64,000 bases of DNA from Flavobacteriales bacterium (GTDB lineage: Bacteria > Bacteroidota > Bacteroidia > Flavobacteriales_F > PHOS-HE28). Positions 1-19,260 of the stretch are shown here, in pieces; within the stretch, counting starts at the first letter, position 1, and every line of letters begins with the position of its first letter. A model generated the notes under the pieces. The model worked only from the letters and a program-made list of their open reading frames with translations, did not search any database and had not been told where the DNA came from. The translations under genes and the position numbers were made by a program. Location: assembly GCA_020635655.1 (NCBI GenBank), contig JACJZI010000009.1:79456-143455 (forward strand), written 5' to 3'.

Positions 1-1
1 C

Positions 2-2038
2 GTGGGCTGCAACCTGGATGTGCGCGTAAAGGATGAAAAAGTGGTGGCCATCCGCGCACCCTACGACGCCGAGGCCAACAGCGGGCACACCTGCCTGAAG
101 GGCCGCTACGCCTTCAGCTTCTACGACCACCCCGACCGCCTGCGCACTCCGCTGATCAAGCGCGACGGGAAGTTCGAGGAGGCCACCTGGGACGAGGCCT
201 ACGACTTCATCGTGGACAAGCTCACCCAGCTGAAGAAGGACCACGGGCCGGACAGCATCGCCGGCATCAGCAGCGCGCGCACGCCCAACGAGGAGAACTA
301 CCTGATGCAGAAGTTCATGCGGGCGGTGATCGGCACCAACAACATCGACTGCTGCGCGCGCGTGTGCCACAGTCCCACCGCCCTGGGCATGCAGCGCACC
401 TACGGCACCGGCGCCGCCACCAACAGCATCGACGACCTGAAGGACACCGACACGATCATGGTGATCGGTGCCAACCCCACCGACGCACACCCGGTGACCG
501 GCGCCCGCATCAAGCAGCAGGTGATGAAGGGCAAGACGCTGATCGTGATCGATCCGCGGCGCATCGAACTGGCCCGCTATGCCAAGTACCACCTGCAGCT
601 GAAGCCCGGCACCAACGTGGCCCTGCTGAACATGATGATGCACTACATCATCGCCGAGGGCCTGGTGGACGTCGCCTTCATCGATGCGCGCACCGAGGGC
701 TGGGAGGAATTCCGCGACCAGCTGCTGGCGCTGGACATCGCCAAAATGGAACAGGTCACCGGCGTGGACCGGAATCTTGTGCGTGAAGCCGCCATCTCCT
801 ATGCGAAGAGCCCCGCGGCCATGAGCTTCCACGGACTGGGCGTCACCGAACATTCGCAGGGCACCTTCACCGTGATGCAGATCGCCGACCTGGCGATGAT
901 GACCGGCAACATCGGCCGGCGCGGCGTGGGCGTGAACCCGCTGCGCGGGCAGAACAACGTGCAGGGCGCGGCCGACATGGGCGCGCAGCCGCACCAGGGC
1001 GCCGGCTACTTGGACGTGACCAAGGAGGAGGCCAACAAACTGTACCAGGAGCACTACGGCGTGCCCGTGCCCAGCCACATCGGGTGGAAGATCCCCGAGA
1101 TGTTCAACGCCGCCATCGACGGCCGGCTGAAGGCGCTCTGGCTGATCGGCGAGGACGTTGTGCAGACGGACCCCAACACCAACAAGGTGATCAAGGCCAT
1201 GGACAGCCTGGAGCTGCTCGTGGTGCAGGAGCTCTTCATGACCGAGACGGCGAAGCATGCGGACGTTGTGCTGCCCGGCGCCAGCTTCCTGGAGAAGAGC
1301 GGCACCTTCACCAACGGCGAGCGCCGCGTGCAACGCGTGAACGCCGTGGTGGAACCGCTGGAGGGCACCAAGAGCGACGGCCAGATCATCGTGGACCTGA
1401 TGAACCGCATGGGTTTCGAACAGCCCGACTACCACCCCTCCTGGGTCCTCGAGGAGATCAGCCGCATCGTGCCCTTCTTCAAGGGCATCCGCTGGGAGAC
1501 CCTGGGTGAGAACGGCAAGCAATGGCCCGTGGCGGCGGACGGCACGGACACGCAGATCCTGCACACCGAGACCTTCAAGCGCGGCAAGGGCAAATTCTTC
1601 ATGCCGGAGTGGATCGAGAGCAAGGAGGTGGCCGCGCACGGGAAGGACTACCCCTACATCATCACCACCAACCGCGAGCTGGAGCACTACAACTGCGGTA
1701 CCATGACGCGCCGCACCCGCAACAACGACATCCTCACCGAGGACGTGCTGCTGATCCACCCGGACGATGCCGCCGCCAACGGCCTGGCCGAGGGCGATAT
1801 GGTCTGCGTGGAAAGCCCGCGTGGCAAGGTGGACATCAAGGCGCGCATCACCGACGAGGTGAAACCCGGCATCCTCTCCAGCACCTTCCATTTCCCGGAG
1901 ATCATGCTGAACATCATCACCAGTGATGTCCATGATACGGAGGCGCTCTGCCCCGAGTACAAGGTGGTGAGCTGCAGGATTAGGAAGGCCAAGAAGGGAC
2001 ATCTCCGCAGCCATGGGGAAGTGGTAAAGAAGAACTAA
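2..2038 (+). CDS. fdhA: Formate dehydrogenase alpha subunit (molybdopterin oxidoreductase), 5'-truncated by window edge
   Basis: 678-aa ORF open to the window start. It has MopB-family signatures (GHTCLKGRY, NNIDCCARVCHSPT active-site loop, C-terminal dinucleotide-binding domain). The active-site residue is Cys where FdhF has Sec. fdhD and Moco genes lie elsewhere in the window. Confidence 0.9.
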   Translation: MGCNLDVRVKDEKVVAIRAPYDAEANSGHTCLKGRYAFSFYDHPDRLRTPLIKRDGKFEEATWDEAYDFIVDKLTQLKKDHGPDSIAGISSARTPNEENYLMQKFMRAVIGTNNIDCCARVCHSPTALGMQRTYGTGAATNSIDDLKDTDTIMVIGANPTDAHPVTGARIKQQVMKGKTLIVIDPRRIELARYAKYHLQLKPGTNVALLNMMMHYIIAEGLVDVAFIDARTEGWEEFRDQLLALDIAKMEQVTGVDRNLVREAAISYAKSPAAMSFHGLGVTEHSQGTFTVMQIADLAMMTGNIGRRGVGVNPLRGQNNVQGAADMGAQPHQGAGYLDVTKEEANKLYQEHYGVPVPSHIGWKIPEMFNAAIDGRLKALWLIGEDVVQTDPNTNKVIKAMDSLELLVVQELFMTETAKHADVVLPGASFLEKSGTFTNGERRVQRVNAVVEPLEGTKSDGQIIVDLMNRMGFEQPDYHPSWVLEEISRIVPFFKGIRWETLGENGKQWPVAADGTDTQILHTETFKRGKGKFFMPEWIESKEVAAHGKDYPYIITTNRELEHYNCGTMTRRTRNNDILTEDVLLIHPDDAAANGLAEGDMVCVESPRGKVDIKARITDEVKPGILSSTFHFPEIMLNIITSDVHDTEALCPEYKVVSCRIRKAKKGHLRSHGEVVKKN

Positions 2039-2082
2039 TTGGGGCAACTACGGCAAATCATGGAGCGCTCTAGATTCGCATA

Positions 2083-2907
2083 ATGGATATTTTGTGGACA
2101 GGACCTGCGGTAAAAGCCGCATGGGACAATCGCGAAGACCTGGCAGACGGTTGGCAACGACTTCTGAACCTGCTACTTGGACGCAAAACTAGAATTGCGT
2201 TTACTGGCTTGCCCGGTGTTGGCAAGACCGTGCTTTTTGATTGCTTGACAGGCCCTGGGTTGCGTTCAACATATCAACCTCCAAAGACTGCTTCTGCTGA
2301 GGAAGATACAGGGACCATAAACGCCAAACGCAGAAGGATGGCGTTGACTGTGGTGCCTGGTCAAAGCGCTTCGACGACTCGTATGGACACCCTGGAGCAT
2401 CTCTTCGACGTAGAAAAACCCGTGGAAGGGGTAATACATGTTGTCTCCCATGGCTATATTGAGGTAAGGAACCTCGCAGCACGAGAAACGCTTGTGGCCT
2501 CGGGACTCAAGTCGATCGCGGACCTGCGTGCTCACTACCTGGCCCAGGAAATTGAAGATATCAAGGACTTGTGCCACAGAATGCGCAGATGCCATCAAGA
2601 CCAGAAACGGCGGCCGTGCTGGTTGATTGTCGCAGTAACCAAGGCTGATTTGTTTCCACACGAAATGTCCATTGTCCGTCCCTACTATTCACCTGAAAAT
2701 ACCAGCGCTTTTTCAGGAGTCTTGGACCAATTTCAAAGACAAGTTGGCGAGGACAATTTCTCATGGTCAGCGCTGCCTGTAGCTGGGCATCCACAAGACT
2801 TTGAATGGGGGGACGAAACAACAAAGTCGTCGATATCTGTCGAAGAACGGAATGCATATTTGCGTCAGTTCACGGCGGTAATTCAGAGTAAATGCTTGAC
2901 CAGATGA
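2083..2907 (+). CDS. Small GTPase-like P-loop NTPase, unassigned family (candidate defence sensor)
   Basis: 274-aa ORF. Walker A GLPGVGKT at nt 2206-2229, G3-like VVPGQ at 2350-2364, G4 TKAD in LIVAVTKADL at 2638-2649. No other domain recognised. Lies in low-GC DNA. Confidence 0.75.
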   Translation: MDILWTGPAVKAAWDNREDLADGWQRLLNLLLGRKTRIAFTGLPGVGKTVLFDCLTGPGLRSTYQPPKTASAEEDTGTINAKRRRMALTVVPGQSASTTRMDTLEHLFDVEKPVEGVIHVVSHGYIEVRNLAARETLVASGLKSIADLRAHYLAQEIEDIKDLCHRMRRCHQDQKRRPCWLIVAVTKADLFPHEMSIVRPYYSPENTSAFSGVLDQFQRQVGEDNFSWSALPVAGHPQDFEWGDETTKSSISVEERNAYLRQFTAVIQSKCLTR

Positions 2908-3359
2908 ACGACTCGAGAGAGCCATATAGCAATGCGACTGACCCGGCTTTCAAGCATTCGAAAGAAGATTTGAAAAGCCTCCTCGACCTGGCCGAGGAGA
3001 TTGAAGGGCGCCTAGAAAAGGCAACAACAAGGCTCAATCTGTCAATCGGCGGATTAGTAGTATATTCTATTGGGGGGACCGTCTTTGCCTTTTACCAAAC
3101 TCCTAGAGCTTTTCCTACCGAGTGGCATGGCCTGTTGTTCTTTTTCCTGTTCGTCATACTCATACTCATAGTTGCCTCGCCATTTCTTTTCCGCATGAAC
3201 AAGAAGCGCAAAACAGAAGCGCGTGCTTTGAATGAGGTACTAGAGGTACTTCATGAAGTCGAATCGGCAATTACGCAGAGAGATGCTTGGAGCGCTCTCG
3301 AAAGAGCTGAGTTCCGGATTCGACTTTCAAGATTTGCTGTACGCAACCGCATGAGGTAG
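2904..3359 (+). CDS. Small 2-TM membrane protein coupled to the GTPase-like gene
   Basis: The ATG at 2904 overlaps the upstream TGA (ATGA). An alternative ATG is at 2892. Two hydrophobic helices (LSIGGLVVYSIGGTVFAFY and GLLFFFLFVILILIVASPFLF) are flanked by charged helical segments. Confidence 0.7.
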   Translation: MNDSREPYSNATDPAFKHSKEDLKSLLDLAEEIEGRLEKATTRLNLSIGGLVVYSIGGTVFAFYQTPRAFPTEWHGLLFFFLFVILILIVASPFLFRMNKKRKTEARALNEVLEVLHEVESAITQRDAWSALERAEFRIRLSRFAVRNRMR

Positions 3360-3425
3360 TGTTACTCATGTATGGACATCGTACATTCCTGGTCCTTCCA
3401 TAGAATTGGAGATGCTCCTGACTGA

Positions 3426-3588
3426 CGCTATGGATTCTTTCAGGATAGCGCTTTCTACATACCGGAAATCATGCTCACCGTGGTCAGGCAACGGTGGCGA
3501 TTCACAGGCGATGTGTCCGGATTACGAGCTAGTGTCTTGTCTCATCAGGAAGGGGAGGAAGGTGATCTCACACAGGCCGGAGAGGTGA
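3426..3588 (+). pseudogene. Decayed, frameshifted copy of the fdhA 3' end
   Basis: My own translation gives GFFQDSAFYIPEIMLTVV in one frame, matching fdhA GILSSTFHFPEIMLNIIT. After a frameshift near 3480-3495 it gives DSQAMCPDYELVSCLIRKGRK, matching DTEALCPEYKVVSCRIRKAKK. Confidence 0.8.
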
Positions 3589-3736
3589 GTGTAAAGGCCT
3601 AGGTTGCCCGCCCTGAGCTTGTCGAAGGGTTTGTGTGTGCCCCCTTGCAAATACCTCGGGGTCGCGCTTTTCGCTACAATTCCTCGCCGGATTACCGACT
3701 CCGGGCTTTCCGCTTCAATCGCTCACGCGAGATGCG

Positions 3737-5443
3737 TCAAGAGTGCAAACGTTCCTCAAGCGCCTTGACCAATGCATCGATTGACCCTCTTCGTCCTTCG
3801 ATAAGACTTTCGAGCCCGGCAGCGGCGGCACAATTTGAAACAATACCCTTGACCTGCGACTCGACCGATTTCGACCACTCCTTCCCTTGATCTTTGCAGT
3901 TCAGTTTCATTCTGTCTGACCAGCTTCCTTTGCTCGTCCTCATGATTGATGGCTTGTATTCAACTCGCAAGTCAGACAATAGCCGGGCCTGATATATCTC
4001 TGGCTTGATGAAGTCCTCTAGCTCAGAGTCATTGAACCCTTTCGCGCTCGCTAGGTGATACTCAGAATGGTCCAATGTCCCTTGGTCAAGTGCCAGCTCA
4101 ATGGCCTTCCTTCCGGCCTGGTCATTATCCAAGAAAGCATGGACGCCACACAGATAGCTCTTGTGCAGGCGCACCTTATAGCCAAGGTTTGACGCTCCAA
4201 CCAAAGGATCAATCGACAGGTTACCATCAGCAAGTGCTCTACCAACGTCCTTTGACAACAAGGGAAGCCATGCCCTCAATACCTGTTCGTCCTCCTTGCC
4301 CTCGCAAACCAATATCAGACTGGCAGTTGCAAGGTTATCAGCAATACGTACCCCTAGCGCATCCCTCACCGCACTGATATGACCAGCCGGAGCAGCCTTG
4401 CCCTTCTGCACAATGATGTTCCTGCTTGGGTGGTACCGATCAACAAGTACAGGCGAGTGGGTGGTGAGGATAACCTGATGACTCTTGGCGATATCGGCTA
4501 GTACCTCTCTGAGCCGGTGAATTGCTCGAGGATGCAGATGTGATTCAGGTTCTTCGATTGCGAGAATTAAGCCCTTTGTGCCGAGTGATCGCTGACTGAC
4601 ATGCCGTAAGAGCGAAATGGCCGTAAGACTCTTGATTCCGTCCCCCTTCATCTCAAGCTCTGTTTCAGTTCCGTCATTTACCAGTACCCGCGCTGACCTA
4701 CGCAGGGCGCGGGAGATACCGCCACCCGACTTAAGGGTTACGCTCCTGACCTCGGGGATGAAGCTTGCAACCATCGTAGTGAGCTCATTGCTAAGCGACT
4801 CTAGTATTGGTCGCTGAATCTCTTCAATGCTCTTCACAAGCTCGCGATACTCCTCCTTTGCTTCAAGCTGTGCAAGTTCCCGTGCCAGTAGATCCTCGAC
4901 GACCCGTTCTGCCATATCTGAGGGCCGAAGGGCGGGTATGTATTGAATGTCTAGTCGCTCGTTGACGAATCGCGCCATCTCTTCTTTCCATTGATCTGCC
5001 TGCGGCCGCTTTGTCAGCTTCGTCTTGGCCTTTCCGGGCAGTACAATATCCAGCAGGGCATCACTTGATCCACAAGAGAGTTTGAGTTTGAGGTTCGTGG
5101 CCAACTGAATCTTGACCTTCCTATTGAAAGCCGTCAGCTCTGCAGCAGTCAGCTCAAACTCCAAGATGAATTCCGACCTGCCATCTGGATAGTCCTTCTG
5201 GGATTGTACTGGATAATCTCGCTTCCAATCGTATGTGTTCTCACCATAGGCATACCTCAGCTGGCGCTGAGCTCGGAAGTAACGTGAACGCGATAGCAAG
5301 CCCAGCGAGAGGACCATTGCTTTCAGAACATTCGACTTCCCCTCATTATTCGGCCCAACCAGCACCGCGAAGTCTCCAAGTGGGAGCTTATACGCCTTTG
5401 TGATGGAGCGATAATCGCTCACGGTGAATGTCACGAGTTTCAT
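3737..5443 (-). CDS. OLD-family nuclease (ABC-type ATPase + TOPRIM), stand-alone
   Basis: 568 aa. Walker A GPNNEGKSN near the N-terminus, Walker B/D-loop LAIEEPESHLHP, TOPRIM glutamate motif LILVCEGKEDE and DxD motif FLDNDQAG. GC about 52% in the hand-counted 4401-4500 sample. Confidence 0.85.
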   Translation of the reverse strand: MKLVTFTVSDYRSITKAYKLPLGDFAVLVGPNNEGKSNVLKAMVLSLGLLSRSRYFRAQRQLRYAYGENTYDWKRDYPVQSQKDYPDGRSEFILEFELTAAELTAFNRKVKIQLATNLKLKLSCGSSDALLDIVLPGKAKTKLTKRPQADQWKEEMARFVNERLDIQYIPALRPSDMAERVVEDLLARELAQLEAKEEYRELVKSIEEIQRPILESLSNELTTMVASFIPEVRSVTLKSGGGISRALRRSARVLVNDGTETELEMKGDGIKSLTAISLLRHVSQRSLGTKGLILAIEEPESHLHPRAIHRLREVLADIAKSHQVILTTHSPVLVDRYHPSRNIIVQKGKAAPAGHISAVRDALGVRIADNLATASLILVCEGKEDEQVLRAWLPLLSKDVGRALADGNLSIDPLVGASNLGYKVRLHKSYLCGVHAFLDNDQAGRKAIELALDQGTLDHSEYHLASAKGFNDSELEDFIKPEIYQARLLSDLRVEYKPSIMRTSKGSWSDRMKLNCKDQGKEWSKSVESQVKGIVSNCAAAAGLESLIEGRRGSIDALVKALEERLHS

Positions 5444-5491
5444 CTCAGCAGTTGTTCGGATACGTGTATGTTGAATTCAATCGCACGAATT

Positions 5492-5836
5492 CTACAACCT
5501 ATCATACTTCGTCGCCACCCCTTTCGCCTTCTCGACGGGGTACTTGGCGGCGTTCTTCCGCAGCTTCTGGCGCACGGCCGTTCCCAGATCCAGGTCCAGA
5601 TCATGGGCCAGATAGGTGAGCAGGATGGCAATATCCGCCATCTCCTCTGCCAGGGCATCGCGGTGCTCTTGGGCCAGGGCTTGCAGGTCGGCGTCCTTGG
5701 CCCATTGGGTGTGCTCCATCAGCTCGGCGGCTTCCAGGGCAATGCTCGTGCTCAGGGTCCGCAGGTTGTGGAACTGCTCCCAATCGCGCTCCTTCCGGAA
5801 GGCCAGCAGTTCATTGCGCAGTTCGTCGCTCAGCAT
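5492..5836 (-). CDS. MazG-like nucleotide pyrophosphohydrolase (DCTPP1-type, single domain)
   Basis: 114 aa. Metal-binding EAAELMEH and EEMADI motifs in a four-helix MazG-type layout. GC about 64%. Confidence 0.8.
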   Translation of the reverse strand: MLSDELRNELLAFRKERDWEQFHNLRTLSTSIALEAAELMEHTQWAKDADLQALAQEHRDALAEEMADIAILLTYLAHDLDLDLGTAVRQKLRKNAAKYPVEKAKGVATKYDRL

Positions 5837-5848
5837 GGGTCAGGGTGT

Positions 5849-6778
5849 TCATCCAACGAAACGTTCATTGTGCCAGCTCAGGAACTCGGGGTCGGGTCGC
5901 TGGCTGTCCAGTTTGGGGATCACGGCCAGCGGCTGGTCGTGCAGGCGGTAATAGGCCTTGCCGTTGTACCACTGCTCCTTGATGCGGTCGCTCACGCGTA
6001 TCCGCAGCTCGGGCGTCACGGTCACCAGCCCCGCATCGAAGAGCTTGTGAAAGTCAGAGCGCAGCAGCATGCCATTGGAGATGCGGTGCGGCCCACCGCT
6101 CGCGTACGACTTGATATGTGCCGCTTCGAGCACCGGCAAGGTGGATTCACCGGTAATGGCACAACGCTTCTGGTACGCCTCGCCCACCAGGATCTGGAAA
6201 GACCCCTGGCCCAGGCGGGCTCTGGTCAGGAAGAGCTCGCCGTAACGCGGTCCGCCATATTCCGCGGCCGGCTCCGCCACCAGATCTTGGACGGCCTTGT
6301 TCTGCAATCGTTCCTGCACCGCATTCCAAAGCCACGCGCCTTCGCTGGTCTCCGTATCGTAGGTCTGTCCCTTCACAATGTTCGGCGCCCAGTTGGGAAG
6401 TTGTATCCAGTTCATGCGCTCGAAGAAGAACGGCTGCACCAGCACGCTGCACCCGATCTCCAACACCTCACGCGGCCCGGAGGACAACCGGCGGATGCGC
6501 TTCTCCACTTCCAGGTATGTGGCCGCCCCGTTCTTCTCGCCGAATGCTTCCCACGCCATGTTCAGCGGCAGCTTCGAGAAGTTCACGAAGTAGCCGCCGC
6601 CTGCAATGCAATTGTGCGGAGCCTTCAGCTTGAAAAGAAAGGGCGTTCCAGCGGGCAGCGTCGTGAAGGGTGCTTTGCCGCTCGGCTGCCAGAAGTTCAC
6701 CTCATCGAAGTCCCGCTCCGAAAGGAAGGTGTACCAATCAAAGTCCGTGACGCCGGCCCAGAACTTCATGCATACCAA
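5849..6778 (-). CDS. HNH_2-type endonuclease with unassigned N-terminal domain (putative restriction-like enzyme)
   Basis: 309 aa. The C-terminal CAITGESTLPVLEAAHIKSY...NGMLLRSDFHKLFDAGLVTV matches the HNH_2 (PF13391-type) signature. The N-terminal ~190 aa are not recognised. An alternative start is at 6769. Confidence 0.75.
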   Translation of the reverse strand: MVCMKFWAGVTDFDWYTFLSERDFDEVNFWQPSGKAPFTTLPAGTPFLFKLKAPHNCIAGGGYFVNFSKLPLNMAWEAFGEKNGAATYLEVEKRIRRLSSGPREVLEIGCSVLVQPFFFERMNWIQLPNWAPNIVKGQTYDTETSEGAWLWNAVQERLQNKAVQDLVAEPAAEYGGPRYGELFLTRARLGQGSFQILVGEAYQKRCAITGESTLPVLEAAHIKSYASGGPHRISNGMLLRSDFHKLFDAGLVTVTPELRIRVSDRIKEQWYNGKAYYRLHDQPLAVIPKLDSQRPDPEFLSWHNERFVG

Positions 6779-6813
6779 AGGAAGGGATCACCGCCCTTCC
6801 ATTTCCGGTAAAT

Positions 6814-7146
6814 CTACCCCAACCCATTCTCCCTGGCCCACAGCACCAGGGCCACCTGGCCGCGGATGCCGTAGCGCTCGAAGATGCGCGTGCGCCACCT
6901 GCTGAGGGTGCCGGGGCATACGTGCATGCGGTCGCAGATCTCCTTGCCGGTGAGGCCCACATCCCGCGCACGGTCTCCGCCTCGGGACCCCGCGCCAAGG
7001 AGCAGCACCCCAGGGTCCACTTCGTGTGAACCTGCGGGAAAGCCAGGGTGCGCAGCCAGGAAAAGCGCGTACCTTCCCTTATGCGTCCGATCTATCTTGC
7101 TTGTCTCGCGATCTGCCAAACGCCCTACATCCCGATCATCGGGCAA
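6814..7146 (-). pseudogene. LuxR/GerE-type HTH C-terminal fragment (possible gene remnant or small regulator)
   Basis: The C-terminal GLTGKEICDRMHVCPGTLSRWRTRIFERYGIRGQVALVLWARENG fits the GerE HTH pattern. No receiver or sensor domain is present. The upstream part overlaps the divergent T9SS gene and contains a 40-nt repeat. Confidence 0.3.
6961..7000. repeat. 40-nt repeat, copy 1 (atcccgcgcacggtctccgcctcgggaccccgcgccaagg)
   Basis: 37/40 identity with 8672-8711 in direct orientation. Contains the imperfect palindrome ggtctccgcctcgggacc. Confidence 0.8.
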
Positions 7147-8649
7147 ACATCCTTCCAGGGTCTATTCGGCGGCTCCGGCCGGGAGGTGGGCTCTTCCGTA
7201 GTTCAGACAAGTGATGGGGGTTACGTGCTCGCCGGGTCCACCACAAGCACGGGCGCAGGGGAGGCTGATGTCCTGCTTATCCGGACCGACCTCAACGGCG
7301 ATACCCTCTGGACGCGGACATACGGTAGTCCCGGTCCTGAGTTTGCTAGTGCATTGCGGCGAACCAGCGATGATGGGCTGATCATTGCGGGCTTCACGGA
7401 TACGGCCAATGCAGGAGCCAACCTTGCTTTTCTAATGCGCACGGACGCGAACGGCGACCTTCTATGGACCAAGACCTATGGATTCGGGTCGGTCTCGGCC
7501 GCCACATCGGTAGAAGGAACATCCGATGGTGGCCTCATCATGGTGGGATACGCAGGTGGGTCCGGTTTTGGTCCCTGGATGTTCGTAGTCAAGACGGATG
7601 CCGTCGGGGATACGCTCTGGACAAGGCGATACCAACATCTCGGCGGTTCCATTGTGGCCACCTACGCATCTTCCGTGCAGGAGATGCCCGGCGGGGGATA
7701 CGTGGTGTTGGGCGATGCCAATGACCTGACCGTGTGCTACGTCATATTAGCTGAGAACGGTGCCAATTTGAGTTCCGGCACCTTCAGCGGAGTCCAGAAC
7801 TATGGCAATGACCTCAATGTCCTCGCACTGGCCAATGGTGGCTATGTGGTAGTTGGTACAACGGCCTCTCCTGGGCCCAATGCGCTCGACATCTTCATGA
7901 TCCGGCTCGATTCCCAGTTGCAGCAGGTTTGGACCCGGACCTATTTCGGCACGAACAGCGAATACGGAAAAGATGTGCGGCAAACGACGGATGGCGGGTT
8001 TGTGATCGTTGGTGTCACACACAGTTTCAATAGCTTCGGTAATGACCACGGTGATGCGTATCTGGTATGCACGGACTCGACCGGGAACCTGCTTTGGTCC
8101 AAGTCCTATGGCAGTATTCAATACGACGAAGGCAGATGTATTCTTCAGACACAGGATGGAGGTTTCATGATCTGTGGCATGCAGGACTTGACAGGAATGA
8201 ACGATATGAAGCTGTATATGGTGAAGGTCGACGCGAACGGCTCAAGTAGCTGCAACCAAGCAGACCCGGCCACGGTCACCTCCGCCATTGCATCGCAACG
8301 TACGTGGCTATCTACAAATTCTTTCATGGGTTGCAACATCGGTTCCCCGCAATTCACGTTCGGTCGTGGAATACCTTTCTCCGATCCATGCACCAATGGG
8401 ATCGAGGAAGACCCCTCGTTCCCGGACGTCCTGATCCAAGGCACCTGCATTCGTGACGAGATATGGATGACCGGCACGGACCAAGGCGATTTGATCATGC
8501 TCTATGACCTGACAGGCAGGTTGCTGAGGACGTACAAGGCGGAAGCGGAAAAGACCATGATCCCGAGTAAAGGGTTAGCCCCAGGCCAATTCATTGTGGT
8601 GTATTCGGATGGCCAAAAGAAGTACACGTTCAAGTTGACCATGTTGTAG
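7048..8649 (+). CDS. Secreted repeat protein with T9SS C-terminal sorting domain
   Basis: The signal peptide is better from the ATG at 7081 (MRPIYLACLAICQ). Recurring DGGY..G....G..D..L...D..G..LW...YG repeats and a C-terminal T9SS-type beta-sandwich tail. Paralogue of 11807-13450. Confidence 0.85.
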   Translation: MRSQEKRVPSLMRPIYLACLAICQTPYIPIIGQTSFQGLFGGSGREVGSSVVQTSDGGYVLAGSTTSTGAGEADVLLIRTDLNGDTLWTRTYGSPGPEFASALRRTSDDGLIIAGFTDTANAGANLAFLMRTDANGDLLWTKTYGFGSVSAATSVEGTSDGGLIMVGYAGGSGFGPWMFVVKTDAVGDTLWTRRYQHLGGSIVATYASSVQEMPGGGYVVLGDANDLTVCYVILAENGANLSSGTFSGVQNYGNDLNVLALANGGYVVVGTTASPGPNALDIFMIRLDSQLQQVWTRTYFGTNSEYGKDVRQTTDGGFVIVGVTHSFNSFGNDHGDAYLVCTDSTGNLLWSKSYGSIQYDEGRCILQTQDGGFMICGMQDLTGMNDMKLYMVKVDANGSSSCNQADPATVTSAIASQRTWLSTNSFMGCNIGSPQFTFGRGIPFSDPCTNGIEEDPSFPDVLIQGTCIRDEIWMTGTDQGDLIMLYDLTGRLLRTYKAEAEKTMIPSKGLAPGQFIVVYSDGQKKYTFKLTML

Positions 8650-8671
8650 GCATGCGGGACCTGGGTCTCAG

Positions 8672-8711
8672 ATCCCGCGCCGGGTCTCCGCCTCGGGACC
8701 CTGCGCCAAGG
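8672..8711. repeat. 40-nt repeat, copy 2
   Basis: Direct repeat of 6961-7000 (37/40). Lies in the convergent intergenic gap after the stop at 8649. The hairpin-capable core could also act as a terminator. Confidence 0.8.
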
Positions 8712-8721
8712 CTCATTCCTT

Positions 8722-9333
8722 TCAATTGTTCCGGGCCACGAACTCACCGTGGAGCGTGATGGTCTCGGCCGGCACCTGAACGTTCGGATCGGTCTGCACC
8801 CGGTACATGCTGAATTCGAGGATCCCGGCGATGAGGTCATCCGTCCGCTCGACGATGGTGATCAGGCCCGAGGCCGCGCCCTGGCCTGCGGGTACCAGAT
8901 GGTACCGCCTGGCGTTCAACACCTGCGCAGTACCGACCCGGACATCCGTGGTGGATAGCACGGCGGAGGAGACGACCGCCGTGTACACATTGTTGATGTA
9001 GGCGAAGTGGTCGATGCCGATGGTGAGCGTTCCCAGCGGTTCGGCATCCGCATCGGCACCGAGGTACACCAGGCCGGCCACATCGGACCAACTGGCATCA
9101 TCGATATCGTACCCGACCAAAGTCTTGCTTTCCCCATCCCCGGAAACATGGTCCAGATGGAGCAGGTAGTTGGAGAAGGACAGGTCCGACACGAACACAG
9201 GTGGGTCCGCGGGGGTGGGGTCGCTTGGTGCCGGCTCATCCCCCTTGCTGCAGGAGGCAAGGGCCAGCATGGCGATGGCCGGAAGAACGAGCCACGGCCT
9301 GTTGCCGGAAAGGGGACTGCGGAGCTGGTGCAT
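8722..9333 (-). CDS. Hypothetical lipoprotein
   Basis: Signal peptide followed by a lipobox-like LALASC. No recognised domain. Confidence 0.7.
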   Translation of the reverse strand: MHQLRSPLSGNRPWLVLPAIAMLALASCSKGDEPAPSDPTPADPPVFVSDLSFSNYLLHLDHVSGDGESKTLVGYDIDDASWSDVAGLVYLGADADAEPLGTLTIGIDHFAYINNVYTAVVSSAVLSTTDVRVGTAQVLNARRYHLVPAGQGAASGLITIVERTDDLIAGILEFSMYRVQTDPNVQVPAETITLHGEFVARNN

Positions 9334-9597
9334 GTGCGCGGTGGTTCGTGGGTGTTGGAGGTCCTGCGCATGGTCGCGCCGCTCCTCGTGCCCTGAAACT
9401 ATCCACGGTGTTCGGCTTGCGCACCAGCGAATGAGCGGATCGCGGCACCGGTCCAGTGACTGGCGGTCCGCACGCGATCACCGGGTCCGCACGGTGTCGG
9501 GATCCACGGGGATGCGGCACCGGGATCGGATCCCGCGCAGGGTCCGATCCTGCTCAGGGTATCCGCCTTGGGGAACAGCGGTTCTTAGCTTCGTTCC

Positions 9598-10254
9598 ATG
9601 TTCATCGGTCACTTCGCACTGGGCATGGCCGCGAAGCGGTTGGTGCCCCGCGTATCCCTCGGCGTCCTTTTCATCGCGGCCCAATTCCTTGACCTGCTAT
9701 GGCCCGTGCTCCTGCTCACCGGCGTGGAGCAGGCCCGGATCGTTCCGGGGATCACTGCGCTCACGCCCCTCGACTTCACGCACTACCCCATTTCGCACAG
9801 CCTGGTGATGGCCACGGTGTGGGGGGTGCTGGTGGGCGTGGTGGCCTACCTGGTGCGCCGGAACGGCCGGGTGGCCCTGGTGCTGGGCGCGTTGGTGCTG
9901 AGCCACTGGGTGCTGGACCTGTTGGTGCATCGGCCGGACCTGCCGATCAGCCCGTTGGGCGGCCCCAAGGTGGGACTGGGCTTATGGAACATGCCCGTGG
10001 CCGCATTGGTGCTGGAACTGGGCCTGTTCGCCTGGGGCGTGTGGGTGTACGTGCGTTGCACCACCGCGCGCGACAAGGTGGGCCGCATCGGTTTCTGGGC
10101 GCTGGTGGCCTTCTTCCTGGTGGTACATCTGATGAACGTGCTGGGGCCTCCCCCGCCGAACATGACCGCCGTGGCCTGGGCCGGCCAGCTGCAATGGCTC
10201 TTCGTGCTCTGGGCCTTCTGGGTGGACCGGCATCGGGAGGCGACGGTGGGGTGA
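9598..10254 (+). CDS. Integral membrane protein, possibly YdjM/DUF457-like metal-dependent hydrolase
   Basis: 218 aa with about 6 hydrophobic helices. The N-terminal MFIGHFALG and conserved His/Asp positions resemble membrane-bound metal-dependent hydrolases. The family assignment is tentative. Confidence 0.65.
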   Translation: MFIGHFALGMAAKRLVPRVSLGVLFIAAQFLDLLWPVLLLTGVEQARIVPGITALTPLDFTHYPISHSLVMATVWGVLVGVVAYLVRRNGRVALVLGALVLSHWVLDLLVHRPDLPISPLGGPKVGLGLWNMPVAALVLELGLFAWGVWVYVRCTTARDKVGRIGFWALVAFFLVVHLMNVLGPPPPNMTAVAWAGQLQWLFVLWAFWVDRHREATVG

Positions 10255-10300
10255 TGTTGGCGATCTGCCCGCGTCGCAGAGGCGGGCGAGGAACGCGCGC

Positions 10301-11659
10301 TCACCGCACCACCACCCGTGCATGCCATGACGCGCCCTCCACCGTGGCGCGCAGCACGTACACGCCGGGAGCGAGCCCGCGCAAGGACACATTCGCGCGT
10401 CGATCCACCGCGCGCAGCGCCACGAACTGTCCGGTGGACGTGAAGACTTCCACCGCATCGCCGGTGTGCAGACCTTCCACGGTCACGGCATCGGTGGTGG
10501 GGTTGGGCCATACACGCAGGCCTGCGCCATCATATTCCGGCACGCCGGCCACCACGCAATTGAGGATCACGCCCACGTAGGCCCCGTTGCTGGCGGGGAT
10601 CACGATGTCCGGCAGGGCATCGCCATTGAAGTCACCCACCGCGAAGTCGATGGGATCCACCGTGGCGCTGCAGCTCACCGCCGCACCGAATTGACCCGCA
10701 CCATCGCCGGGAAACACATGCATCGCATTGCCATAGTAGTCCGCCACCAGCAGGTCCTTGTGCCCGTCCAGGTCCATGTCCACGAAGCGGACGAACGAGG
10801 GACCTGTGCCGGCCTGCATGGCGATCGGCGCGGCGAAGGATCCGCTGCCATCGCCCATGCACAGCGCGAGCGGATCGGGATAGGAGTCGGAAACGACCAC
10901 GTCCGCATGGCCGTCGCCGTTCAGGTCGAAGGTGGAGGCGAAGATGCTGGTGTGCGGATGGGGCACGTGGGTGCGCGTGCCGAAGGTGCCGGGGCCGGTG
11001 CCCCACAGCACGCTCCAGAAGTGGTCCACCTCGCCGAACCCGGCCAGGTGGGTGTACAACACATCGAGGTGTCCGTCCTCGTTCAGGTCGGCCAGGTCGA
11101 GCGAGGTGGCGGTGGCATCCGTCGGGTAGTTCACCGCGGGTTGGAAGGTGCCATCACCGTTGCCGAGCAGCACCGCCAGGCCGCCACCGCCCGCGCCGTG
11201 GGGCACGAGCAGGTCCACGAAGGTGTCGCCATCCATGTCGCGCGCCAGCAGGGTCCACGTTTCTCCGAGCGGGATCGGCACGGCGACCGGCGCGGCGAAG
11301 CTGGCTCCGCCGAGGTTCATCAGGATGTCCACCTGGCCGGCATGGGCGGTCACCAGGTCGGCGCGGTCATCGCCGTTCAGGTCGGCCGCGACGATGTCCG
11401 TGGGGAAGGTGTCCACGTCCAGCGTGAGGGCCGGTTGGAAGGTGCCATCGCCGTTGCCGAAAAAGAGGGACACATCACCGGTGAGGTGGTTGCTCACGGC
11501 CATGTCCAGCAGGGTGTCGTCGTTCAACTGCGCCGCGGCGATGCCCCAGAGGTCGAGCCCGCCGGAGGCGACAAAGCCGGTGTAGTCCAGGCAGGGGCCC
11601 TGGGCGTTCGCTATGCCGGATAGCGCGAACACGGATGCACCAACGAGGAGGCGTCGCAT
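10301..11659 (-). CDS. FG-GAP/VCBS repeat protein with T9SS C-terminal sorting domain
   Basis: Signal peptide MRRLLVGASVFALSGIANAQ, repeated D.NGDG..D motifs, and the C-terminal VWPNPTTDAVTVEG... tail. Confidence 0.9.
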   Translation of the reverse strand: MRRLLVGASVFALSGIANAQGPCLDYTGFVASGGLDLWGIAAAQLNDDTLLDMAVSNHLTGDVSLFFGNGDGTFQPALTLDVDTFPTDIVAADLNGDDRADLVTAHAGQVDILMNLGGASFAAPVAVPIPLGETWTLLARDMDGDTFVDLLVPHGAGGGGLAVLLGNGDGTFQPAVNYPTDATATSLDLADLNEDGHLDVLYTHLAGFGEVDHFWSVLWGTGPGTFGTRTHVPHPHTSIFASTFDLNGDGHADVVVSDSYPDPLALCMGDGSGSFAAPIAMQAGTGPSFVRFVDMDLDGHKDLLVADYYGNAMHVFPGDGAGQFGAAVSCSATVDPIDFAVGDFNGDALPDIVIPASNGAYVGVILNCVVAGVPEYDGAGLRVWPNPTTDAVTVEGLHTGDAVEVFTSTGQFVALRAVDRRANVSLRGLAPGVYVLRATVEGASWHARVVVR

Positions 11660-11806
11660 GTGAACAAGGTAGGGGTGGGAGGCGCCGGGGCCGGATGCAT
11701 CACCCGCAACCGGTGCGCCATTCTTGGAGGGCGTGAGGTGAAGCGTTGACGGTATGCGGCAACGAGGCCTGCCATTCGGGCTATCTTCACGAATGCACCT
11801 CGGCCC

Positions 11807-13450
11807 ATGCTACTGTTCGATCGCACCATCCTCAAGCGTCCATTCATCCTCGCGTGTGGCCTGCTCACCGCGCTGACCGCTCCTGCGCAGACGCTCTTCC
11901 ATTACGCATTCGGCTATGAAAGCAACATCGGGAACCTGGAGCCCGTCACCGGGCCCAGTGGCTACCTGATCTGTTCCACTGTTCGCTTCGGGTTGGGAAA
12001 CATCGATGGCTTTCAGTTCACGCGATTCGACTCCACCGGCCATGTTGTCCATACCGCCGCCTTTTCAACAGGGCCCCTCACGAATGTGATGCAGGATGGA
12101 GCCCTGTCCCGCTGTCGATCGAACGGCACGTACGCATTCCTGTTCGGGACCTGGACCAATGGAGTAGGAACGCCCAAGTCCTCCCTGCGGGTCTTCAACA
12201 CCACCCCAGCAGGGCTCATGAATTGGAACCGGAGGATCGAGTACGCTGCTCCGAATTATTCCATCCGCTATCTGGGGGCCATGGAACAGGCCTTTGAGGA
12301 AACCCCGGATGGGGGCTATTTGATCAGTGGATTACGGTCGGCCCCTGCCCCAGGACCATCGGACACGCTCGCGCCCATGGTCGTGAAGCTGGACTCAATG
12401 GGCAATGTGCTTTGGAACAAGACCTATTCTCTGGACCTAGCGCACGCCTGGCATATCGTTTCTGATGTGGACAGTAGTGGTGCAACATTGCTCGGATTTC
12501 ACGCCGATAGTCTATTGGCGATCAACAGTGACAATTGCTTTCTGACAAGGATCGACCCCGCTGGGAACACGCTTTGGTCCAAGCTGATCGATGGCCTCCA
12601 CGGGCGGCTCACCAGCTGTGTAGGGGTACATAGTCACTACGCCATCAGTGCCGAGGATTCGACCAGCACCTACCTCATGGAACTCGATACGGCAGGAGTT
12701 CCCATATGGGGTAAGCGCTATGTCTTCGCATCTCCGCTGGATACATGGGGTGCGGGTATTGTTCCCACGCATGACCACGGCTTCGTGCTACAAAAGGAGG
12801 TGCCGGACAGCGTTGGCGGCATCGATGTGTTCCTCTTCAAGGTGGACTCAGTTGGTGCCGTGCAATGGGAGCGACGATTCGGCAATTTGAACTATGAGTG
12901 GCCCATCGACCTGGTCGAGAACGCGGACAGTACATTCACCCTGCTGGCAGGCACCCAGCTTTTCGCGATCTGGTCGGGGTTTTACTTCAGCGAGCTCGAC
13001 GCCATCGGGATGAATGATTGCATCACGCCCGCTGACGGAACCGTGACCGAAAGCACGATCCCGTTCGCACTGGTCGATGTGGCGCTCAATGAATTCGAGC
13101 CCCCAATGACCTCACAACCGCTCTACTTCGGCGATACGCTAGGCTGGGATCCCGTCATGGTGGACACCTGCTTATATCCCTTCACCTTGGATGTGCACGA
13201 GCAGATCCCCACTCAAGGCCCCACCATCTACCCCGATCCCTGTCATGATCTGGCCATCCTGCACCTGGACCCGATCGCCGACCACCCGGTGTTCCAACTG
13301 CTGGATGTACTGGGAAGGCCGGTCAAGCGCCTGCGGATCGCCTCGAACGACACGCCGGTCGACGTCAGCGATCTGCCCGGCGGGATCTACCTCTACCGCA
13401 TCACCACTGATCGCGGACAGAGGTGGTCCGGGCGGTTGTTGAAGGAATAG
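11807..13450 (+). CDS. Secreted repeat protein with T9SS C-terminal sorting domain (paralogue of 7048-8649)
   Basis: Signal peptide, G..LW.K repeats, and the C-terminal IYPDPCHDLAILHL...GIYLYRI tail. Confidence 0.85.
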   Translation: MLLFDRTILKRPFILACGLLTALTAPAQTLFHYAFGYESNIGNLEPVTGPSGYLICSTVRFGLGNIDGFQFTRFDSTGHVVHTAAFSTGPLTNVMQDGALSRCRSNGTYAFLFGTWTNGVGTPKSSLRVFNTTPAGLMNWNRRIEYAAPNYSIRYLGAMEQAFEETPDGGYLISGLRSAPAPGPSDTLAPMVVKLDSMGNVLWNKTYSLDLAHAWHIVSDVDSSGATLLGFHADSLLAINSDNCFLTRIDPAGNTLWSKLIDGLHGRLTSCVGVHSHYAISAEDSTSTYLMELDTAGVPIWGKRYVFASPLDTWGAGIVPTHDHGFVLQKEVPDSVGGIDVFLFKVDSVGAVQWERRFGNLNYEWPIDLVENADSTFTLLAGTQLFAIWSGFYFSELDAIGMNDCITPADGTVTESTIPFALVDVALNEFEPPMTSQPLYFGDTLGWDPVMVDTCLYPFTLDVHEQIPTQGPTIYPDPCHDLAILHLDPIADHPVFQLLDVLGRPVKRLRIASNDTPVDVSDLPGGIYLYRITTDRGQRWSGRLLKE

Positions 13451-13511
13451 GGCCGCTCTCCTCCGATCCCACACCAAGGGTCTCGATCCCGGGACCCACA
13501 CGAAGAAGACC

Positions 13512-16500: not shown

Positions 16501-16547
16501 AGCACCAGCCCGACGGGGTCCCGGTAGCGGACGAAGAAGTCCCTCAT
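13512..16547 (-). CDS. RND efflux transporter permease
   Basis: 1011 aa with the 12-TM AcrB/CzcA-type architecture. Stop/start overlaps link it to the adaptor gene. Confidence 0.9.
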   Translation of the reverse strand: MRDFFVRYRDPVGLVLALVLMAGLFAYTHIHSSLFPEVTFPKVKIIADNGLQPVDKMMVTVTRPLEAAIERTPMLQDIRSVTSRGSCEISAFLDWNADVDLGKQQIATAIEQVRGDLPPGTNISVEKMDPSILPIMGFTIAGGDKDPIELDLIANYVVRPYLTQVGGVSEVRVIGGRKKEYRVTLRTDRLAQLGVTPDSIAAALGRTNFIRSDGFLFTGHRMYLTVTDATVRSLRELQDLVVANDGRRVLHLSDLADVAVQEAPQYLRINANGRDAVLIAVVRQPGANVIDVSDGVRQRVQELNDGLLPSGVHLAPYYVQADFVSDSIHSVRDALLIGMLLAIVVAMIFLRSWRSSLVLLLTIPITLAFTLVLMHAFGFTLNIMTLGAVAAAIGLVIDDAIVVVEQLHRTHEEHPGRPSAELVGDAVRFLFPAMVGSSLSTIVIFLPFVLLSGVAGAYFKVLADTMMITLGCSFLISWIGLPVIYLLLPKEKIAALQPAHDVEGKERVTRTARTIGWLVRRPWISLTFIVLLVVAAIWALGHIGSGFLPEMDEGSIVLDYDSPPGTSLEETDRMLREVERTFAAVPEIATYSRRTGTQMGFFITEPSRGDYLIQLRKDRKRTTDEVIDDIRQRVEASQPALRVDFGQVIGDMLGDLMSSTQPIEIKVFGTDRQVLRKLAKRVAGIVERVPGTADVFDGITIAGPSIAVVGDQRELALRGLSSQDLDDQVRLYGEGTIIGEVLETEQMVPVRMAHRDAGDLSMQQLRGAPIFLPNGRTLGLGSLATITAAPGDAEVEREDLQLMVPVTARLNGRDLGSVMHDIQHAVRSAVQLPKGYHIAYGGAFQEQQRSFQELARVLLAASLLVFTVLLFLFRDLRAALVVLFVALLGIGGCVLALYVTGTPLNVGSYTGIIMIVGIIGENAIFTYRQYAHVLPGKGVHDALVYAIGTRLRPKLMTAIGAIVALAPVALGIGVGAQLHQPLAIAVIGGFVTGLPLLLVVLPSLLRLVVKR

Positions 16548-18720: not shown

Positions 18721-18741
18721 GGCCCCGAAGTTCGATCGATC

Positions 18742-19230
18742 CTAGTTGTCGTCGTCGTTCTCCTCGCCTTCATCCTCCTCCTCCACCGTCGACTTCAACA
18801 CGTTGCCCTGGGCATCGAACACCACTTCCATCGTGGTCTCCCCCTTCTCCAGTTCCACCTCGTAGCGCGGGCCATCCGGTGTCTCCACGGACTCGGCTTC
18901 CTCCATTTTGTAGCCGCCGTAGTTCTTGCCGATGGACTCGCGCACCGTGCCGGGCAGGTCCTGCACCTTCATGCGGCGTTCGGTCTCCGTCCAGGTGCCA
19001 TCGGTGCGGAAATTGGCCGAGACCTTCTCCCCGTTCAGCTGGAAGTTGGCTTCGTATTCCTCCTTCCCTTCCATCTCCCACTTCACCTTTTCCGCCTGCG
19101 CGAACCGCGCCTTGAATTGTTCCATCACCACATCGGGAATGTGGATCGTGCCATTGTTCTGGCTGCAGGCAACGCTCCCGAACAGGAGCATCGCACCGGA
19201 TAAGGTCAACAAGGTCTTCATGATGAGCAT
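18742..19230 (-). CDS. PepSY-like (DUF2874-type) periplasmic protein with acidic tail
   Basis: I trimmed the 286-aa track ORF to the ATG at 19230 (MLIMKTLLTLSGAMLLFGSVAC signal). Repeated short beta-hairpin modules and a C-terminal EEEDEGEENDDDN tail. Confidence 0.7.
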   Translation of the reverse strand: MLIMKTLLTLSGAMLLFGSVACSQNNGTIHIPDVVMEQFKARFAQAEKVKWEMEGKEEYEANFQLNGEKVSANFRTDGTWTETERRMKVQDLPGTVRESIGKNYGGYKMEEAESVETPDGPRYEVELEKGETTMEVVFDAQGNVLKSTVEEEDEGEENDDDN

Positions 19231-19260
19231 GTGTTTGGGGTCCGGTCGCAAGCTGGCACC

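Follow-up and report, generated by a model that had tools for sequence, protein, structure and literature searches.

The stretch of DNA analysed here, referred to throughout as the window, comprises 64,000 nucleotides (nt) of contig JACJZI010000009.1 from a Flavobacteriales bacterium (assembly GCA_020635655.1, positions 79,456 to 143,455 of the forward strand). Near its left end lie two forward-strand genes, here called A and B, which constitute an undescribed two-gene module that joins a branch of small GTPases to a family of membrane proteins. Gene A (2083–2907) encodes a predicted single-domain small GTPase of 274 amino acids (aa), of the Ras-like/TRAFAC type and with a G3 motif like that of MglA. 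Gene B (2904–3359) encodes a 151-aa protein with a predicted N-terminal cytoplasmic helix, a first transmembrane helix (TM1), a short outer loop, a second transmembrane helix (TM2) and conserved cytoplasmic C-terminal helices. The two open reading frames (ORFs) overlap in an ATGA at 2904–2907, in which the ATG (2904–2906) is the start of B and the TGA (2905–2907) the stop of A. The public annotation also has the 151-aa product beginning at 2904 (P0052, 100% identity), although B may instead start at the in-frame ATG at 2892, with a product of 155 aa. The ORF coordinates, the ATGA overlap and the positions of the motifs discussed below had been put forward in an earlier reading of the DNA letters (the original prediction), and all agree with the sequence. 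Both are evidently real genes and not chance ORFs, with homologues of A reaching E = 6e-88 and the B family recovered by profile search at E down to 3e-38. We found no description of the A–B pair in the literature.

Every one of the 43 distinct loci with a close, C-terminally complete A and at least 300 nt of downstream DNA has a B-family ORF immediately 3′ of A in the same orientation; loci were obtained through protein look-ups and scans of genome and metagenome collections, and are labelled by L-numbers. Judged from ORF coordinates, the B start falls between −32 and +42 nt of the last base of the A stop, and overlaps of 4–13 nt are frequent. Pairwise distances among A proteins track those among their B partners (Mantel r = 0.70, a value reached by 0 of 2000 permutations), indicating that the genes are inherited and transferred jointly. 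In Akkermansia the two are joined in one protein, P0004 (355 aa, six contigs), in which residues 1–243 of A are fused in frame to B from TM1 to its C-terminus, without the last helix of A and without the N-terminal helix of B. Together with the fusions of B described below, this protein suggests that A and B cooperate directly and physically, and it is likely that A binds B. The original prediction depended on A and B occurring together beyond this genome, and the adjacency, the natural fusion and the correlated distances establish that they do.

A distant actinobacterial clade of A-like proteins (30–35% identity) has no B gene downstream and lies in metabolic contexts (L038, L040–L042, L047, L073, L075 and L078, including the Georgenia plasmid NZ_CP094291); the match to the profile hidden Markov model (HMM) often stops near position 236 in these proteins, and the clade may be an older branch that is either partner-less or differently partnered. 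Separately, in a metagenome-assembled genome (MAG) of Fimbriiglobus (L031), a 1323-aa ORF without a Pfam match (1422–5393) is encoded on the same strand and ends 4 nt inside the A start, and may be a third component in that planctomycete.

The motifs of gene A are those of a small G domain, with conservation assessed over 197 family members and denominators of 192–196 at individual positions. The G1 (Walker A) motif GLPGVGKT at residues 42–49 (2206–2229) is strictly kept, with Gly47 and Lys48 present in 193/193 members and Thr or Ser at position 49 in 193/193. A candidate G2 (switch I) spans Ser71 to Glu75 (2293–2307); Ser71 is present in all 194 members and Glu75 in 179 of them, and this tentative assignment is based on its place between α1 and β2 in the structural model. 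The G3 (switch II) sequence is VVPGQ at residues 90–94 (2350–2364), in which the usual Asp is absent and Gln94 occupies the position of the catalytic Gln of Ras. The G4 guanine-specificity motif TKAD at residues 186–189 (2638–2649) is well conserved at Lys187 (188/192) and Asp189 (192/192), and its first position varies among Thr, Asn, Ala, Asp and Ser across the family. The original prediction drew attention to the missing Asp in G3; this is correct, but it is not a peculiarity of the copy in the window, as Asp occurs in 0 of 196 members. The family G3 has the form [V/T][I/V]PGQ, with Val (140 members), Thr (33), Ile (11), Ala (9) or Ser (2) at the Asp position, and with Pro in 195, Gly in 194 and Gln94 in 161 of the 196. 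The canonical DxxG with its Mg-coordinating Asp is thus not found in the A family. This leaves A within the Ras-like/TRAFAC superfamily, because MglA deviates in the same way (PMC4316618), and the other characters of the superfamily are all present: a Walker A of the form GxxxxGK[S/T], a G4 of the form [N/T]KxD and a small G-domain fold.

Database comparisons and structural modelling give the same picture. The only Pfam family to match A is MMR_HSR1 (PF01926; 24.8 bits against a gathering threshold of 21.9, residues 37–127), which matches 29 of 32 A family members at E ≤ 0.01; it is a generic G-domain model, and the match is silent on ribosome binding. An NCBIfam scan of A yielded nothing meaningful. 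An AlphaFold model built with 32 homologues (predicted local distance difference test score, pLDDT, 87.7; predicted template modelling score, pTM, 0.86) shows one G domain over the full length of the protein, and a six-stranded sheet with flanking helices. In the model, β1 (35–42) is followed by α1, β2 and β3 (75–90), α2 and β4 (116–121), then by two inserted helices (131–139 and 145–172), β5 (180–185) running into TKAD, two further helices and β6 (227–232), and finally by a small β-hairpin and a last helix, α5 (253–272). The original prediction recognized no domain in about 100 C-terminal residues; these are in fact β6, the hairpin and α5 of the same G domain. There is no hydrophobic segment in A, which is modelled as a soluble protein, and a conserved N-terminal peptide with Trp5, Pro8 and Arg17 is modelled with low confidence.

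Foldseek comparison of the A model with the PDB gave 1569 matches at E ≤ 1e-3, the top ones being Arl2, Arl13B, Arf1, KRas, Rab33, an Asgard Arf, a RagA-like protein, GIMAP2 and FeoB, with E of about 1e-7, template modelling (TM) scores normalized to the target of 0.5–0.68 and identities of 10–19%. A profile search against PDB sequences gave weak matches to Der, Sar1 and FeoB over the stretch from the P-loop to G3, among the best 60 of 260. Taken with the Pfam and family matches, these results agree with the original assignment of A to the TRAFAC GTPases, and we conclude from its motifs and modelled fold that A is a Ras-like/TRAFAC GTPase and not an ABC or AAA ATPase. The A family is a new and remote branch of the Ras-like GTPases that has the switch II peculiarity of MglA. 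Its nucleotide-binding motifs are intact throughout, and A would be expected to hydrolyse GTP.

The B proteins are likewise a coherent family. ORFs lying 3′ of A at 27 loci are all mutually homologous (phmmer E from 1e-60 to 1e-6), and their alignment has, in order, a variable N-terminus, a helix LLxLAEeLq, two poorly conserved hydrophobic helices, a basic stretch and a conserved C-terminal region. In the window copy, the N-terminal cytoplasmic motif is LLDLAEE at residues 26–32 (2979–2999), in which Ala30 is invariant and Leu26, Leu27 and Glu31 are nearly so. TM1 lies at about residues 44–64 (3033–3095), with approximate boundaries taken from hydropathy and a continuous helix in the model, and TM2 at about residues 76–96 (3129–3191; hydropathy peak 3.06) is followed by the basic sequence RMNKKRK. 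The best conserved part is the C-terminal cytoplasmic region, ALNEVLEVLHEVE...WSALERAEFRIRLSRF, at residues 108–144 (3225–3335), where Leu109, Glu118, Ile139, Arg140, Leu141, Ser142 and Arg143 are invariant or nearly invariant and the family consensus reads drrALxEVvxLLREvE...wSxLERAeFRIRLSRFdIG. This region is presumably a docking or regulatory surface for A.

Two transmembrane helices are predicted in 40 of 41 B members, with a median loop of 14 aa. Lys and Arg residues average 2.6 ahead of TM1, 1.05 within the loop and 3.2 beyond TM2, a positive-inside distribution indicating that both ends of the protein are cytoplasmic (N-in/C-in). Conservation is concentrated in the cytoplasmic helices, and the loop is short and variable. 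The AlphaFold model of B (pLDDT 81) has a long helical hairpin (14–69 and 73–125) and a third helix (131–150). The original description of B as a protein with two transmembrane helices and charged helical segments therefore holds, both for the model and hydropathy of the window copy and for the family.

When B alone was used in a word-index search, just two proteins were returned, P0052 and one relative, and the relative sits directly 3′ of an A homologue (L001). The homology of the partner ORFs and the profile search indicate that this outcome reflects a sensitivity limit and not rarity. Searches of Pfam, PADLOC and PHROGs identified no relative of the window B, and neither Foldseek searches of the PDB and BFVD nor a profile search of PDB sequences gave a significant match. 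The best structure-search results were designed transmembrane hairpins and MCU (E of 0.04–0.7); a likeness of B to the coiled coil–TM–TM–coiled coil arrangement of MCU and CorA-like proteins was considered and rejected as evidence at these values. By these comparisons, B defines a new protein family.

Several B homologues carry additional segments. In one cyanobacterial clade (L011–L013), a 517-aa protein begins with a B module of about 165 aa and continues into DUF4407 (PF14362, E = 5.4e-44), a domain with multiple transmembrane segments and coiled coils; in L011 the gene lies at 7859–9412. The window B has no match to PF14362, and we found no description of the function of DUF4407 in the literature. 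The homologues in L007 (7813–8718) and L035 (6834–7766) have C-terminal extensions of 150–160 aa with no Pfam or PADLOC match, which could be alternative effector or sensor domains. These fusions suggest that B can serve as an adaptor for further parts. A further protein, P0056 (292 aa, from a 2.8-kb Logan contig), has a TetR-type helix-turn-helix (PF00440) fused to a full B module; we have set it aside as likely to be an artefact of assembly or gene calling, although a genuine fusion would mean that B can exist without A.

The A family is large but patchily distributed. An HMMER scan of 1.84 billion representatives gave 1068, 620 and 271 clusters (counted at 50% identity) at E ≤ 1e-3, 1e-10 and 1e-30 respectively, and nearly all members are stand-alone proteins of 260–290 aa. 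Matches in genomes are found in Verrucomicrobiota, Acidobacteriota, Armatimonadota, Alpha- and Betaproteobacteria, several Cyanobacteria, Myxococcota, Planctomycetota and Actinomycetota, and the window adds Bacteroidota to this range. Overall, the pair is present in at least ten bacterial phyla. The best matches to the window A (51–54% identity) are metagenomic sequences and the Akkermansia copy (53%), and not proteins of other Bacteroidota; such cross-phylum nearest relatives indicate horizontal transfer.

At three loci (the window, L014 and L036), direct repeats flank the cassette on both sides, one copy being the end of the gene upstream and the other its duplicate. In L014, an Akkermansia muciniphila MAG (CAMAUZ010000091.1), the repeat is the thiC 3′ end (477 nt, 90% identity; 745–1221 and 4974–5450), and between the copies lie the A–B fusion P0004, a C5 cytosine methyltransferase (PADLOC MTase_II, 2.5e-108) and a 348-aa ORF. 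This cargo spans 1279–4909; the 348-aa ORF has no Pfam match, and is possibly the cognate nuclease. In L036, repeats of 193 nt (94% identity; 2810–3002 and 5689–5880) stand right after a large serine recombinase, copy the 3′ end of the recombinase gene plus the downstream spacer, and enclose A, B, a DUF6414 fragment and a 215-aa ORF. Duplications of an upstream-gene 3′ end in three unrelated genomes suggest that small cargo cassettes share one mechanism by which they insert site-specifically. The pair is also found on a Hymenobacter plasmid amid transposases and a DUF262 gene, and in L007 beside terminase, primase and DUF5131 genes in a prophage-like region. Searches of 50,697 phage records (by tblastn), of IMG/VR and of PHROGs turned up no copy, and the idea that A–B is a phage gene was dropped.

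In the window, the ORF upstream of A encodes a formate dehydrogenase alpha subunit (fdhA; E = 3e-185 against PDB 6tg9), and the intact fdhA 3′ end (1880–2038, + strand) is the left copy of the duplication that brackets the cassette. The right copy, at about 3447–3561 (+), is a decayed version of the last 150 nt or so of the gene and forms the right edge of the insert; it was identified by repeat search, alignment and tblastx, has about 60–70% DNA identity to the left copy and 57% identity in a translated 21-aa core, and gives a tblastx match of 1934–1996 to 3499–3561 with E = 1e-5. The G+C content is 0.47–0.54 over about 2000–5500, compared with 0.63–0.67 in fdhA. The A–B cassette lies in this low-G+C inserted DNA, with the fdhA stop on its left and the decayed 3′-end duplicate on its right. 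No recombinase is present inside the cassette, a tRNA search of positions 1–20000 found none, and a scan of 1850–3800 for sigma-70 promoters and terminators gave none above shuffled expectation with a model that is not designed for Bacteroidota promoters.

Three defence-type genes stand beside the cassette on the reverse strand (3737–6778). The nearest (3737–5443) encodes a 568-aa OLD/GajA/AriA-like ATPase of the OLD family (PADLOC Old, 1.7e-31) with the Toprim-type motifs EGKEDE and DNDQAGR. With the composition scan and the repeat alignment, this PADLOC match substantiates what the original prediction had noticed from the letters, namely a low-G+C cassette, a duplicated fdhA end and an OLD neighbour. 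The second gene encodes a 114-aa MazG-like protein (PF12643, 1.3e-16). The third encodes a 309-aa protein with a C-terminal HNH_2 domain, akin to phosphorothioate-DNA-dependent restriction enzymes (NF045808, 2.9e-19, below cut-off), and with no match for its N-terminal 150 aa or so. The G+C content climbs to about 0.60–0.64 over the MazG-like and HNH_2 genes, so the island in the window is probably composite. A functional tie of A–B to the OLD nuclease was considered and rejected, and we treat the two as separate systems: OLD is on the opposite strand, the fdhA pseudo-end lies between, and OLD is missing at most other loci.

From these observations, a working model can be proposed. A would be a soluble small GTPase with a Ras/Arf-like fold and an MglA-like [V/T][I/V]PGQ switch II, and B would form a helical hairpin in the inner membrane with both ends in the cytoplasm. 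A would dock on the cytoplasmic helices of B, that is, on the N-terminal LLxLAE helix and the C-terminal ALxEV..LLRE...LERAEFRIRLSRF region, with the Trp5/Pro8/Arg17 peptide of A and Glu118, Arg140 and Arg143 of B as candidate contact residues or residues of the kind used by GTPase-activating proteins (GAPs). The GTP or GDP state of A might then control oligomerisation or opening of B, one state keeping B inert. The switch would flip on a trigger, for which infection or some other invading element is the most plausible candidate; B would oligomerise, the inner membrane would be perturbed or permeabilised, and the cell would arrest growth. The outcome would be defence, abortive infection or some other form of conflict. 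The membrane-damaging output, the trigger and the defence role are all putative.

An anti-phage or other conflict role is plausible, and of the functions considered we rate a role in conflict, be it defence, abortive infection or something akin to them, as the likeliest, with confidence a little short of even. This rating derives from the mobility of the pair, its patchiness, the variable fusions and the fast evolution of B. The fuller statement, that A and B are two subunits of one self-contained, horizontally mobile module with a GTPase-gated role in conflict, is held just as tentatively. A narrower version, in which A–B is a widespread anti-phage abortive-infection system and an MglA/Arf-like sensor switch gates a pore-forming B with two transmembrane helices, seems to us somewhat unlikely; if it holds, prokaryotes would have their own equivalent of the immune GTPases that act on membranes, and the B module would be a portable adaptor for other effectors, namely DUF4407 and the extensions in L007 and L035.

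Mean pairwise identity across the family is 22% for B and 40% for A. Among Acidobacteria that share the same locus, B is 26–30% identical and A 53%, compared with 74–78% for the flanking PIN-TRAM gene. B is diverging much faster than its surroundings, which fits the behaviour of conflict genes. At the Acidobacteria locus, either the pair has been inherited vertically while B evolved very fast, or the site is a hotspot where it has been replaced repeatedly.

Genomic neighbourhoods, sampled at about three genes per side in a small set, speak for a role in conflict at some loci. Conflict-type neighbours (defence or mobile-element genes) are present at about 9 of about 30 loci, namely the window, L001, L007, L009, L014, L017, L036, L046 and L085. 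Beyond those already described, in which the window has OLD, MazG-like and HNH/phosphorothioate-restriction-like genes, there is a Schlafen/AlbA_2 gene near the pair in L001, AbiEi together with SNF2 and DUF4132 genes in L009, and an OLD-like AAA_15/AAA_21 ATPase in L085, and L046 is a plasmid. In L017 (Capsulimonadaceae chromosome OZ251980.1), a SWIM_XIII gene (PADLOC E = 4.5e-169) and then a 462-aa ORF occupy 655–4260, about 1.7 kb upstream of A–B, and the neighbour set also includes an RT_XIII match (E = 1.5e-148); these neighbours may be a class XIII defence-associated reverse transcriptase system. We saw no defence or mobile-element neighbours at L002, L005, L011, L016, L018, L019, L083 and L084 or at most of 20 genome loci.

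Several findings weigh against a role in conflict. Conflict-type neighbours at about 9 of about 30 loci are a modest enrichment at best, and one judged without a matched control. The 20 genome loci supply 108 flanking proteins, and the Pfam families that recur among these belong to housekeeping functions (IspD, RadA/ChlI, CobN, ThiC, SecA, short-chain dehydrogenases, GGDEF and TPR), and integrases, Uma2 and ParB are few. The pair occupies the same place beside a PIN-TRAM gene and ispD/ispF in four Acidobacteria (L002, L005, L018 and L019), and two Cyanobacteria have a CobN neighbour in common; such kept positions have the look of a locus passed on stably by descent. Nor do defence genes accompany the pair at L011, L083 and L084. 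Neither A nor B of the window gave a match to PADLOC-DB v2.0.0 at E ≤ 1, and B shows no likeness to known pore-forming effectors. The original prediction of a defence or abortive-infection cassette is therefore sustained in so far as the pair is conserved, undescribed and, in the window, set in a horizontally acquired, defence-rich spot, but conflict-type neighbours occur at only about a third of loci. A predominance of housekeeping contexts was to have counted against it, and many copies do lie in such settings.

An alternative explanation, and the main rival, is that A–B is a membrane-tethered small-GTPase module for signalling or organisation with no part in defence. B would be a membrane receptor, possibly a GAP or a guanine nucleotide exchange factor (GEF), that brings A to the inner membrane, in the manner of MglA with MglB/RomR or of Arf, Sar1 and SRβ with their own membrane partners, and the module would control the envelope, polarity or membrane organisation in bacteria with large genomes and complex lifestyles. 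We consider this somewhat improbable, and yet a good deal of the evidence fits it. The Asp-less G3 is as in MglA, and MglA scores above Arf1 and HRas in profile alignment; Arl and Arf proteins are the top Foldseek matches, and the helix preceding β1 can be aligned to the N-terminal helix of Arf. Cyanobacteria, Planctomycetota, Myxococcota, Acidobacteriota and Actinomycetota often carry the family, and the housekeeping flanks, the synteny kept in Acidobacteria and Cyanobacteria, the lack of PADLOC or PHROGs matches and the failure to find phage copies are all as such a module would predict. It accounts less well for a very patchy distribution (about 1,000 clusters in 1.84 billion representatives) in which closest relatives are cross-phylum, for the plasmid, the prophage-like region and the repeat-bracketed low-G+C cassettes, and for the very fast divergence and variable fusions of B. 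Nor did we see a further conserved partner gene, such as a kinase or MglB, in the neighbourhoods examined.

A second alternative, which we think improbable, is an addiction module of the toxin–antitoxin kind that stabilises its mobile carrier DNA and does not act against phage, with B a small membrane toxin (holin- or Hok-like) and A its regulator or antitoxin. The compact operon of two overlapping genes and the small B with two transmembrane helices resemble such modules, and the plasmid, the prophage-like region, the repeat-bracketed cassettes and the AbiEi and other toxin–antitoxin-type neighbours at some loci also speak for it. The putative toxin, however, is the downstream gene and is bigger and more elaborate than classical membrane toxins, the covalent A–B fusion of Akkermansia is hard to square with a labile antitoxin, many copies are chromosomal, syntenic and remote from mobile elements, and we know of no precedent for a GTPase antitoxin. 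Fortuitous adjacency, or one of the ORFs being no gene, could appeal only to the two-protein outcome of the search with B alone, and is refuted by adjacency at 43 of 43 loci, homologous partners, a fusion protein and co-evolution.

What is new here is a GTPase branch and a membrane-protein family that together make up an undescribed two-gene module. To our knowledge, small Ras-like GTPases are rare in bacteria, and the only ones with known roles are MglA and those of the conservon systems; the A family is a third bacterial branch, of roughly 1,000 clusters, tied to a very different partner in the form of the membrane hairpin B. If A–B is a defence module, a small-GTPase-gated membrane effector joins bacterial immunity in the form of a compact 1.3-kb system. 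If it is instead a physiological switch, it provides an example of coupling between a small GTPase and the membrane in bacteria, and bears on the origin of Arf/Sar-type recruitment. In either case, strict pairing, a fusion that occurs in nature and a set of invariant residues (Lys48, Ser71, Gln94 and Asp189 of A; Glu118, Arg140 and Arg143 of B) make the question directly testable.

How the pair relates to named systems can be considered gene by gene. The original prediction could not match the pair to any of them, and this still stands: PADLOC v2, Pfam, NCBIfam and PHROGs give only generic G-domain or P-loop matches, and the PADLOC models of Eleos, Tmn/KAP, Gabija, Kiwa and Zorya and of the CBASS and Pycsar effectors have no match to A–B. 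Among A family members, the sole PADLOC match is PDC-S73 (19 of 32 members, best E 3.9e-8); identity of A with PDC-S73 was rejected because, of the 752 positions in that model, the match takes in only some 50 residues at the P-loop. The sole PADLOC match among B variants is to CARF_TM, in one variant (E = 0.023). The GAP1/DO-GTPase conflict systems (Kaur et al. 2020) were also considered and rejected; these are multi-gene systems with other components, and are described as nearly absent from Cyanobacteria.

MglA offers the closest parallel in switch II. A G3 that reads TVPGQ or GTPGQ, with no Asp, is the hallmark of MglA according to a survey of Ras-like GTPases in prokaryotes (PMC4316618), and MglA and A are both single-domain Ras-like proteins with an xxPGQ lacking Asp, Thr being the first residue in 33 of 196 A members. 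Alignment of the A family profile with hhalign gives a probability of 79.9% for MglA (E = 1.4e-5 over 136 columns, with G4 misaligned), 49.5% for Arf1 and 37.8% for HRas; the M. xanthus MglA query is identical in sequence to PDB 6hjh. Both GTPases are encoded beside a dedicated partner. MglA has about 195 aa, however, and A is about 75 residues longer, with the inserted helices at 131–172 and the β-hairpin; the partner of MglA, which is a polarity switch in bacteria, is the Roadblock/LC7 GAP MglB, whereas B is all-helical with two transmembrane segments. No Roadblock domain was found in the annotated neighbourhoods of A or among its top neighbour families, and MglA is absent both from the top 50 Foldseek matches of A and from the best 60 of 260 matches of the A profile to PDB sequences at E ≤ 1. 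The PGQ motif and the hhalign result thus touch on the possibility, raised with the original prediction, that A belongs to a known cell-polarity GTPase family, but the likeness is remote and MglB is missing; on sequence grounds, we do not place A in the MglA family in a strict sense.

The Arf, Arl, Sar1 and SRβ GTPases are the top structural matches of A (Arl2, Arl13B, Arf1 and the Asgard Arf, with target-normalized TM-scores of 0.54–0.68), Sar1 and Pfam SRPRB give weak, partial-domain sequence matches, and the Arf N-terminal helix aligns by hhalign with the helix of A directly before β1. A nucleotide switch governs the recruitment of these GTPases to membranes; Sar1 works with the membrane-anchored Sec12, and SRβ has a transmembrane anchor of its own. 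Identity to the Arf family is only 10–19%, however, the G3 of A is not DxGGQ, and A shows no sign of an interswitch toggle or of lipidation and belongs to a family that is bacterial, patchy and mobile. The Dx[G/P]G[Q/H] G3 and the significant sequence similarity that would mark a member of the Arf/Sar/SRβ family are lacking in A, and the structural likeness is real but generic.

Among defence systems, the Tmn and KAP NTPases, which contain transmembrane helices, have been validated (PMC13552941), and Eleos works through GTPases (bioRxiv 10.1101/2022.05.11.491447). Tmn/KAP and Eleos (LeoA/LeoBC) follow the same logic as A–B, in that a P-loop NTPase is coupled to membrane segments. Eleos is dynamin-like, whereas A is a small GTPase and not a dynamin; A is not a KAP or Tmn NTPase, since its NTPase domain has no transmembrane segment and the transmembrane helices are on the separate B. 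The SLATT proteins and the effectors with two transmembrane helices of CBASS, Pycsar and type III CRISPR are small membrane proteins like B, and the cytoplasmic helical region of B could sense a partner and disturb the membrane. B differs in having a long cytoplasmic helix before TM1 and in having a GTPase, not a nucleotide cyclase, as partner, and SLATT is not among the 25 most often matched of the 47 Pfam families that 27 B members match at E ≤ 0.1. For atlastin/Sey1, GIMAP and Toc34, there is no sequence relationship to the pair, and A and B are separate in almost all genomes; the likeness is architectural only, and is seen in the P0004 fusion, which like these proteins combines a G domain with two transmembrane helices and a conserved basic helical tail.

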